Part shown: positions 16,254-17,096 of the stretch, in pieces
How positions within the stretch are numbered: position 1 is the first letter of the stretch
How the letters are laid out: the number at the start of each line of letters is the position of its first letter
Assembly: GCA_964557445.1 (NCBI GenBank)
Contig: CAZLAF010000002.1
Span: 9,695-73,694 of the forward strand
DNA length: 64,000 nt
Origin: an uncultured Candidatus Saccharibacteria bacterium
Lineage (GTDB): Bacteria; Patescibacteriota; Saccharimonadia; Saccharimonadales; Saccharimonadaceae
Direction: 5' to 3'
Notes under the pieces: generated by a model
What the model was told of the DNA's origin: nothing
The model's database searches: none
Seen by the model: the letters and a program-made list of their open reading frames with translations, nothing else
Program-made: the position numbers and the translations under genes

Positions 16254-17096
16254 CTATAATCTCAGTAGTAAATATACCGCAAATAGACCAATAATTAAAA
16301 TCAAGAAGCTTGTCAGCACAATCTCAAGCAGCGCTCGAAAGATTGATTTCTTTGACATCGGATTGCGACCGATAGAGATAATGCTGTTGCGCACACCTGC
16401 ATACAGTACTGAGAGCGCCGTAATAAGGCTTACTGCAGTAATCGCTAGGCTAATATATATTCTGATTGGACTCACTTCTTTTTCAGCAATCGCCTGACCA
16501 ATACGCTCCAAAAACTCAGGCACCTCTACTTTGGTGCTCTTTTCATTGGGATTGCGTTTGATATCAATTGTGACTGGCACCATACCGAGTGTCACCGATT
16601 TGTTTGTTCGCCCTTCGGTATCTTTGAGCGTCGCCGTCCCCAGTGTCACACCCTTGCCATCGAACGCACCATAGGCGCGACCAAACACTGTTTTTTCCTC
16701 AGTCCCAGCCTTCATAGCAACACCGTTAATCGACGACAGCGTCACATGATCACCAACCGCAATCGAACCACCTTGAGTACTCACAAGCACATTATAAGTC
16801 CCCGATGCGGCCACAAATGTCTCGTTTTCTAGCCCCTCGCTCGTCAGGGTAAATGGCAGCTGATTGCGATCAACTGTCACACCGAACATATTTTGTAGCT
16901 CAGCCTGTGAGGCTACCTTGACGCGATCGCTATCCTTGCCAGTCAGCTGCACTATCGTACCAGTGTCGAGAGCTGTGTCGGTTGCATAGCCCTGTACGCT
17001 TCCGCCCCCATAACTTGCGCCAAGCACAGGTAGAGAGGCGCTGGCAGTAATACCAACGGCAATCATAAGACCAACAATGATCCGATTTGCTTTCAT
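16254..17096 (-). CDS. secreted-domain protein ending in a two-helix hairpin that resembles an ATP-synthase c subunit
   Basis: Signal peptide MKANRIIVGLMIAVGITASASLPVLGA, an extracytoplasmic domain of about 190 aa, then ISLAITAVSLITALSVLYAGV-RNSIISIGRNPMSKKS-IFRALLEIVLTSFLILIIGLFAVYLLL. It is the first gene of the ATPase operon. Confidence 0.45.
   Translation of the reverse strand: MKANRIIVGLMIAVGITASASLPVLGASYGGGSVQGYATDTALDTGTIVQLTGKDSDRVKVASQAELQNMFGVTVDRNQLPFTLTSEGLENETFVAASGTYNVLVSTQGGSIAVGDHVTLSSINGVAMKAGTEEKTVFGRAYGAFDGKGVTLGTATLKDTEGRTNKSVTLGMVPVTIDIKRNPNEKSTKVEVPEFLERIGQAIAEKEVSPIRIYISLAITAVSLITALSVLYAGVRNSIISIGRNPMSKKSIFRALLEIVLTSFLILIIGLFAVYLLLRL

Follow-up and report, generated by a model that had tools for sequence, protein, structure and literature searches.

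A predicted surface protein with a subunit c-like hairpin at the head of an F1-like ATPase operon in Saccharibacteria

Gene X and the seven-gene operon

The uncultured Candidatus Saccharibacteria bacterium of assembly GCA_964557445.1 carries on contig CAZLAF010000002.1 an operon of seven genes for an F1-like ATPase, the first of which, here called X, encodes a predicted exported protein that ends in a two-helix hairpin resembling subunit c of F-type ATP synthases. The stretch analysed, 64,000 nucleotides (positions 9,695 to 73,694 of the contig), is called the window, and all coordinates are those of the window. X is followed by genes for b-like, delta-like, alpha, gamma, beta and epsilon proteins, all on the minus strand and abutting or overlapping by ~4 nt. 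Conservation columns refer to 51 diverse X homologues, and structural features to an AlphaFold2 model graded by its predicted local distance difference test (pLDDT). The features of X are:

16254..17096, minus strand: gene X, 280-aa precursor of signal peptide, ectodomain and c-like hairpin (open reading frame, homologues, AlphaFold2)
17016..17096, minus strand: signal-peptide-like N-terminus, residues 1-27, MKANRIIVGLMIAVGITASASLPVLGA (sequence; AlphaFold2 helix 3-19 and low-confidence linker 25-30)
16521..17000, minus strand: predicted extracellular beta-rich domain, residues ~33-192 (Foldseek, AlphaFold2)
16260..16469, minus strand: C-terminal hairpin, residues 210-279, of c-like length and shape (AlphaFold2 helices with pLDDT >95; Foldseek)
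16359..16370, minus strand: loop motif GRNP, residues 243-246, invariant in 51/51 homologues, proposed docking site for F1 (gamma/epsilon)
16323..16325, minus strand: codon of Glu258, non-conserved (column composition Q31, E5, K5, S2, A2, R2)
17108-17115, minus strand: candidate ribosome-binding site GGGGGAAG, tentative, read from the sequence
17139..17147, minus strand: extended -10-like element TGGTATAAT, ~40 nt upstream of the ATG of X, tentative, read from the sequence

X is a genuine gene and no chance open reading frame. The frame, which opens with ATG in the window sequence, has homologues in 1661 clusters at 90% identity (E<=1e-3), and the 1100 representatives at 50% identity are nearly all full length (260-300 aa) and of the same architecture. 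All of them are without a name or labelled 'hypothetical', those named in the present text all belong to Saccharimonadia, and Pfam and NCBIfam scans of X matched no family. The N-terminus reads like a signal peptide (K2, R5, a hydrophobic run at 6-18, then ASA/LGA), and the hydrophobic segment is also present in the aligned homologues. The AlphaFold2 model, for which a 51-sequence alignment served as input, has a mean pLDDT of 89.8 and runs from a helix (3-19) through a beta domain (34-181) and a short helix (194-204) to a pair of long helices (210-244, 246-279) that are antiparallel to each other. The order of signal peptide, outside domain and two-helix hairpin, which the original prediction had drawn from the letters of the DNA, is that of the model, with the ectodomain nearer to ~160 than to the proposed ~190 aa; its quotation of the C-terminus, ISLAITAVSLITALSVLYAGV-RNSIISIGRNPMSKKS-IFRALLEIVLTSFLILIIGLFAVYLLL, agrees with the translation, as does its placing of Glu258 14 residues past Arg244.

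Upstream of X, a scan for consensus promoters and terminators found promoter-like sites to be no more numerous than in shuffled sequences, so that the -10-like element is without statistical support. At the other end, X and the b-like open reading frame share a reading frame in the window, with one TAG (16254-16256) between them. Readthrough fusing the two was considered and rejected, as the coiled coil of the b-like protein would end up outside the cell and the genes lie in different frames in a relative (L001), for which latter reason the shared frame looks coincidental.

Relatives were collected with the pattern [SA]IGRNPLSK, taken from a 10-sequence alignment, in a scan in which each GTDB species was represented by a single genome; this gave 197, and counts refer to the best 80 of them, all Saccharimonadia (Saccharibacteria). 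At these 80 species loci X is 38-62% identical to the window protein, and every locus with room downstream has X at the head of the full set of seven genes, their order unchanged. The arrangement recurs in three loci at ~30% identity (L089, L091, L092) and probably in a further one (L004). X lies directly before the b-like and delta-like genes and hence, as the original prediction had it, in the slot of atpE in the order atpE-F-H-A-G-D-C. The opposite case, a hairpin family occurring mostly outside atp operons, is contradicted by an association with the operon that is very strong across Saccharimonadia loci. No further conserved membrane protein was found in the operon across the 80 loci, the seven conserved genes including none that is polytopic, and neither stray c-like open reading frames nor a second alpha or beta gene were found among the 87 loci examined.

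The remaining six genes of the operon in the window are, in order of transcription:

15486..16253, minus strand: b-like coiled coil, 252-255 aa, no transmembrane helix in the window copy (architecture, position)
14974..15489, minus strand: delta/OSCP-like, 171 aa, C-terminal domain alone recognisable (Pfam OSCP, 20.5 bits)
13419..15038, minus strand: alpha-like, 539-aa open reading frame, called publicly as 520 aa with its start at 14981 (Pfam ATP-synt_ab, 208.8 bits)
12553..13422, minus strand: gamma-like, 289 aa (Pfam ATP-synt, 84 bits)
11129..12556, minus strand: beta-like, catalytic, 475 aa (Pfam; TIGR01039)
10812..11123, minus strand: epsilon-like, 103 aa, N-terminal beta-sandwich only (Pfam ATP-synt_DE_N, 43 bits)

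The 'ATPase operon' of the original prediction is no canonical atp operon, since all five recognisable subunits fall below the NCBIfam equivalog cut-offs (score/cut-off: alpha, atpA 359/484; beta, TIGR01039 436.9/462.85; gamma, TIGR01146 67.7/194; epsilon 31/67, every epsilon model staying below its cut-off; delta 21/57.5, E=1.8e-5). Beta retains Walker A, the catalytic Glu and Arg and a DELSEED-like SELSNED (best PDB match 362 bits), and alpha retains GDSKVGKT and, in SVTRVGG, the Arg finger; by these motifs the F1-like head is proposed to be catalytically competent. The beta-sandwich that is left of epsilon is the rotor-contacting domain in F-ATPase structures. The 64-kb window holds no c-like open reading frame (GxGxGxG or [AG][RK][QN]P[EDSG]), and subunit a (PF00119) was found neither in the operon nor elsewhere in the window. 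Alpha (13419-13560) and beta (11129-11220), both on the minus strand, end in low-complexity tails rich in Ala, Glu and Lys that extend past the region aligned with solved F1.

Of the two stalk proteins, the delta-like one is the more readily recognised: the OSCP C-terminal domain was matched in 5/5 diverse orthologues, and the top 16 PDB matches of its profile are all delta/OSCP. In 75/75 other Saccharimonadia species representatives (e.g. L008:8766-9401), the b-like protein carries a transmembrane helix at its N-terminus and a coiled coil further on, with a conserved motif FN(D)EFREELRNRGRLHFE after the helix, and FREEL..RGRLHFE is common to the window copy and the 75 orthologues. As ATP-synt_B gave a weak match in one b-like orthologue only and the b-like profile matched no b subunit in the PDB, sequence searches give no confirmation, and the b assignment is one by architecture and position. 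The window copy contains a 51-aa tandem internal duplication (residues 112-162 and 166-216; score 127 versus 33 +/- 5 for shuffles).

The hairpin, its loop and the ectodomain

Foldseek superposed the hairpin on solved c subunits of the PDB with target TM-scores of 0.8-0.89 and a root-mean-square deviation (rmsd) of 1.1-1.5 A over ~67 columns. These are F-type c subunits, with mammalian, Chloroflexus and yeast ones among them; the matches of the ectodomain aside, nearly every listed PDB match of X is an F-type c subunit. By model and Foldseek the hairpin is thus of the kind expected for PF00137 (ATP-synt_C), i.e. two transmembrane helices in ~70-80 aa. According to the 51-sequence alignment and the predicted topology, the invariant GRNP sits in the sole stretch of X that faces the cytoplasm, and its register is that of the R(Q/N)P loops of c subunits, which bears out the c-like loop core that had been read from the window sequence.

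At the level of sequence, the hairpin profile had a single match among 177,635 PDB sequences (E<=10), the c subunit of Chloroflexus aurantiacus (E=0.023), in register on IGRNP. The profile scores c subunits of the Chloroflexi type at 11-19.5 bits, which 0/1000 composition-preserving shuffles of each reached, and hhalign of the hairpin against an alignment of Chloroflexi c subunits (GRNPE-type) gave a probability of 79% and P=1.7e-5. A search with a fragment of the Chloroflexus c subunit for the canonical c of Saccharibacteria listed 50 proteins, all of the Chloroflexi type. X has in common with subunit c, and with the Chloroflexi IGRNPE type in particular, the ~70-aa two-helix hairpin, the place of R-N-P in the loop and the position of the gene before b. 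X is unlike subunit c in its signal peptide and its ~160-aa extracellular domain, and in having no conserved Asp or Glu, no GxGxGxG, no Pfam match and no partner subunit a.

The original prediction had pointed to the single membrane-embedded Glu as a candidate c-type residue. Position 258 is, however, Gln in 31 of the 51 homologues and Glu in five, as many as have Lys, and a conserved acidic residue was not found anywhere in residues 205-280 across them. Without a conserved carboxylate in the hairpin, X cannot be an ion-binding c subunit. As far as model and sequence go, the hairpin would work like the F1-facing half of c, with the same shape, loop and gene position, and it is plausibly derived from a c subunit.

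The ectodomain has its structural matches among phage proteins. In the PDB, Foldseek listed the decoration proteins of Pam3, Sf11, BB1, HFTV1 and TW1 as well as phi29 gp12 (E 1e-4 to 1e-2), and in BFVD a preneck appendage 'barrel', the N-terminal domain of Mtd, DUF2190 and many fibre proteins (E down to 2.9e-10; rmsd 2.6-3.4 A over ~150 columns). Pfam Phage_cement_2 was matched weakly (E=0.15), and the homologue alignment shows a conserved motif, VATSG.Y.VLVS.QNG.I..GDYIT.S...GIGMKA. The predicted fold is thereby common to X and to phage decoration or cement proteins and fibre or appendage barrels (DUF2190, phi29 gp12, Mtd), but identity to these modules is 9-25% only, and X is set in a cellular context, membrane-anchored and without phage genes in its vicinity. 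Phage fibre and decoration modules are usually oligomeric and commonly trimeric.

The canonical ATP synthase and described F1-like machines

Twelve freshwater Saccharibacteria possess contiguous a-c-b-delta-alpha-gamma-beta-epsilon operons (PMC9296517, Table S1), and in Southlakia epibionticum atpZ-B-E-F-H-A-G-D-C (SEML1_0349-0358) is the sole annotated ATP synthase set, the subunits of which receive normal names from the Prokaryotic Genome Annotation Pipeline (PGAP) (PMC10633639). In X-bearing genomes, the X operon comes after MetRS, TatD and cysteine desulfurase, and in L089 it lies exactly between YdcF/DUF218 and MnmA. In Southlakia, the block of MetRS, TatD, two hypotheticals, cysteine desulfurase, YdcF and MnmA is unbroken and the corresponding site empty, with the canonical operon ~300 kb off. 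By synteny, then, the X operon occupies a locus of its own instead of standing in the place of the canonical one, and these observations favour a paralogous second system.

The described systems closest in concept to the X operon are the F1-like X0 ATPases of mycoplasmas (Type 2/3; Beven 2012, PMC3369863; Berlureau 2026, PMC12994834). These, too, are encoded by seven genes, combine alpha-, beta-, gamma- and epsilon-like subunits with non-canonical membrane proteins and do without the a/c pair, and their Protein 5 (MSC_0620/MMCAP2_0577), by description with signal peptide, large domain and two C-terminal transmembrane helices joined by a short loop, is like X. The Type 3 ATPase is linked to a surface system both in the genome and in function, being required for MIB-MIP (PMC3369863, PMC12994834). 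On the other hand, the mycoplasma clusters contain a Protein 1 with 12 transmembrane helices, which is absent from the seven conserved genes of the X operon, and lack equivalents of delta and b, of which the X operon keeps both a delta-like and a b-like gene; moreover, the mycoplasma alpha is without the N-terminal delta-binding helix, and the gene order is unlike that of the X operon. Alpha and beta of the window stayed below the cut-offs of the MSC_0619/MSC_0618 and MMOB1660/1670 models (score/cut-off 246/520, 401/570, 325/600 and 369/850), and score higher on the canonical atpA/atpD models than on those of MSC_0618/0619 or of the gliding motor. The alpha, beta and epsilon models of the N-ATPase (alt_F1F0) likewise stayed below their cut-offs (306/750, 402/752, 20/100), and AtpQ and AtpR were not found in the operon.

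Among other phyla of the candidate phyla radiation (CPR), ATPase operons of WWE3 and OP11 with membrane proteins that lack homology to a, b and c have been mentioned (Kantor et al., 2013; PMC3812714), which may represent the same system as the X operon or an analogous one. The remark takes up one paragraph and concerns other phyla, noting a 'putative c' transmembrane protein common to such operons with no analysis of the protein (PMC3812714). In ProAD, sets that have alpha, beta and gamma and are without a or c count as incomplete. In the literature searched, we found no paper that ties an F1-like ATPase to Saccharibacteria or the CPR, or that describes the X operon.

A mechanical reading and its rivals

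X is best read as the membrane-sector subunit of a divergent F-type ATPase that lacks subunit a, an 'F1-like X0' ATPase put to mechanical use, a reading to which we assign a probability of roughly 0.55. X would be exported by Sec, probably with cleavage of the signal peptide, which would leave the ~160-aa beta domain outside the cell, with the C-terminal hairpin crossing the membrane in the manner of a c subunit. An oligomer of X would hold, by its GRNP loops, the foot of gamma and epsilon of an alpha3-beta3-gamma-epsilon head, which in turn would be steadied by the peripheral stalk of the delta-like and b-like proteins. As there is neither a conserved carboxylate nor a subunit a in the operon, ion translocation by the X complex is ruled out, and ATP hydrolysis would be spent mechanically, turning the X oligomer or putting torque on it and thereby moving its extracellular domains. 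The analysis shows which genes are present, their order and its conservation, the catalytic residues, the loop motif, the predicted fold and the lack of ion-binding features; the oligomeric ring, the docking of gamma and epsilon, the rotation and what the mechanical work is aimed at are parts of the mechanism that we infer. The operon as a whole has the look of a mechanical device that runs on ATP at the cell surface, not of a proton-driven ATP synthase.

A number of results weigh against this reading, beginning with the kinship of the hairpin with subunit c. PF00137 did not match X at E<=1, and when the 51 hairpins were scanned singly with Pfam at E<=10, at most one can match ATP-synt_C, the matches being scattered noise from transmembrane families. 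Against eight classic c subunits (each confirmed as PF00137), hhalign gave P=0.02 only. With the four columns of GRNP masked, the hhalign similarity to c subunits (at best P=1.7e-5, with the Chloroflexi type) fell to P=0.39, the level of the reversed-sequence controls (P 0.2-0.3). The detectable sequence similarity to c is therefore that of the motif alone; common descent from c, though likely, is not demonstrated by it, and the docking loop may have arisen by convergence. The profile comparison that the original prediction had suggested gave no Pfam match and an hhalign similarity carried wholly by four residues, and its caution that helix 1 is without GxGxGxG was apt, the helix being poorly conserved with scattered small residues. 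With both the ion-binding feature and the family profile failing, X is not to be filed as a c subunit. A tight c-ring may have little room for an ectodomain of ~18 kDa on each hairpin. The transmembrane helix is missing from the b-like protein of the window and of the 77%-identical L001-L003 locus, which leaves the stator of this clade without an evident membrane anchor. Finally, two X-like genes (P0236 in L005/L006; P0185 in L007), ~30% identical to that of the window, stand apart from F1 genes; relatives 47-63% identical to P0236 are located in the seven-gene operon. In L005, the gene after the X-like one encodes RNase H.

The genes beyond the operon bear on what such a machine would act upon. 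In 41/44 loci where 3.5 kb or more of sequence lies past epsilon, a convergent gene for a single-pass membrane protein is followed by one to three that encode secreted proteins. Many of the latter have a TPAG-x-Y...F/Y motif at their end, and the cluster resembles the WxL/Csc cell-surface clusters of Firmicutes. In the window these genes are:

9787..10815, plus strand: convergent single-pass membrane protein with beta-helix-like repeats, downstream of the operon
1269-9712, minus strand: paralogous secreted proteins, including WxLIP_PGBD (DUF916-like) and PKD domains, forming the surface cluster of the window

By analogy with MIB-MIP, the WxL-like cluster may be taken as a lead to the target of the machine, the link being one of synteny only.

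The same cluster is central to an alternative that we consider rather unlikely, in which X is a static anchor and transducer and ATP hydrolysis by the F1-like head drives a conformational change that is passed to surface proteins (WxL-like/WxLIP), in the manner suggested for the Type 3 ATPase of mycoplasmas with MIB-MIP. The architecture parallels that of Protein 5, single-pass and WxL-like genes lie downstream of epsilon at nearly all loci with room, WxLIP_PGBD being present in the window, and the b-like protein of the window clade is without a membrane anchor; the phage-like modules, being usually trimeric, also suit a small oligomer more than a ring of 8-15. However, gamma, epsilon, delta-like and b-like subunits are retained, a full kit for rotor-stator coupling for which an anchor has no need, the hairpin has the dimensions and the loop motif of a c subunit, and the conserved vicinity of surface genes might be neutral. 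The more elaborate picture of a true rotor ring, in which c-derived hairpins with an extracellular crown are spun by F1 and partnered with the WxL-like cluster in an epibiotic lifestyle, with attachment, surface remodelling or motility as examples of its use, is speculative and we hold it to be doubtful.

Less likely again is an ordinary proton or sodium ATP synthase with atpB and atpE elsewhere in the genome, for which X would be an accessory or assembly factor like AtpI/AtpZ and the low scores would reflect CPR divergence. The order of b, delta, alpha, gamma, beta and epsilon is indeed canonical, the catalytic residues are intact, and split atp operons occur in other bacteria. But the canonical operons of Saccharibacteria are contiguous and have F1 genes of their own, in Southlakia the canonical operon is elsewhere and the site that X occupies in L089 is empty, and all five F1 and stalk subunits remain under NCBIfam cut-offs where those of Southlakia are named normally by PGAP. 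Furthermore, epsilon is without its C-terminal domain and the b-like protein of the window without a transmembrane helix, and AtpZ/AtpI (PF09527) was neither among the matches of X nor among the families matched by at least two of the 51 hairpins. That X is a surface protein, secreted or in the membrane, which is unrelated to the ATPase and shares no more than a promoter with its genes, as two distant X-like genes that stand alone and the phage-like fold of the ectodomain might suggest, is very improbable given strict adjacency and order in about 80 species and in deeper branches, and given that the invariant residues are in the cytoplasm-facing loop and not in the ectodomain.

Elsewhere in the window, an 888-aa secreted CBM_4_9 protein (17339-20005, plus strand) is encoded divergently from X; it is present in L001-L003 and absent from the other 80 loci, and is for that reason placed outside the conserved system. 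Two adjacent genes on the minus strand (21363-23156 and 23227-24951) encode membrane-anchored proteins of ~575-600 aa which by eye look paralogous, the C-terminal part of the second being, again by eye, like a serine hydrolase or beta-lactamase. The cumulative GC skew falls monotonically across the 64 kb, from 0 to -3.8, and the GC content of ~0.48-0.50 drops to ~0.40 between 40 and 58 kb.

Rotary F-type ATPases are familiar as energy converters coupled to ions, and to our knowledge the sole well-described exceptions are the F1-like machines of mycoplasmas, which serve gliding and antibody cleavage. If the mechanical reading is true, Saccharibacteria would be a second, independent lineage, and the reuse of F1 as a mechanical motor at the surface would be recurrent in tiny host-dependent bacteria. 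Saccharibacteria would then have kept the full F1 and stalk and traded the a/c sector for a hairpin that is free of carboxylates and bears an ectodomain. Surveys that call an F-type ATPase present from alpha and beta, or discard sets without a and c, can misjudge the bioenergetics of Saccharibacteria. The X operon is compact, widespread and clearly delimited, and the proposal is therefore directly testable.

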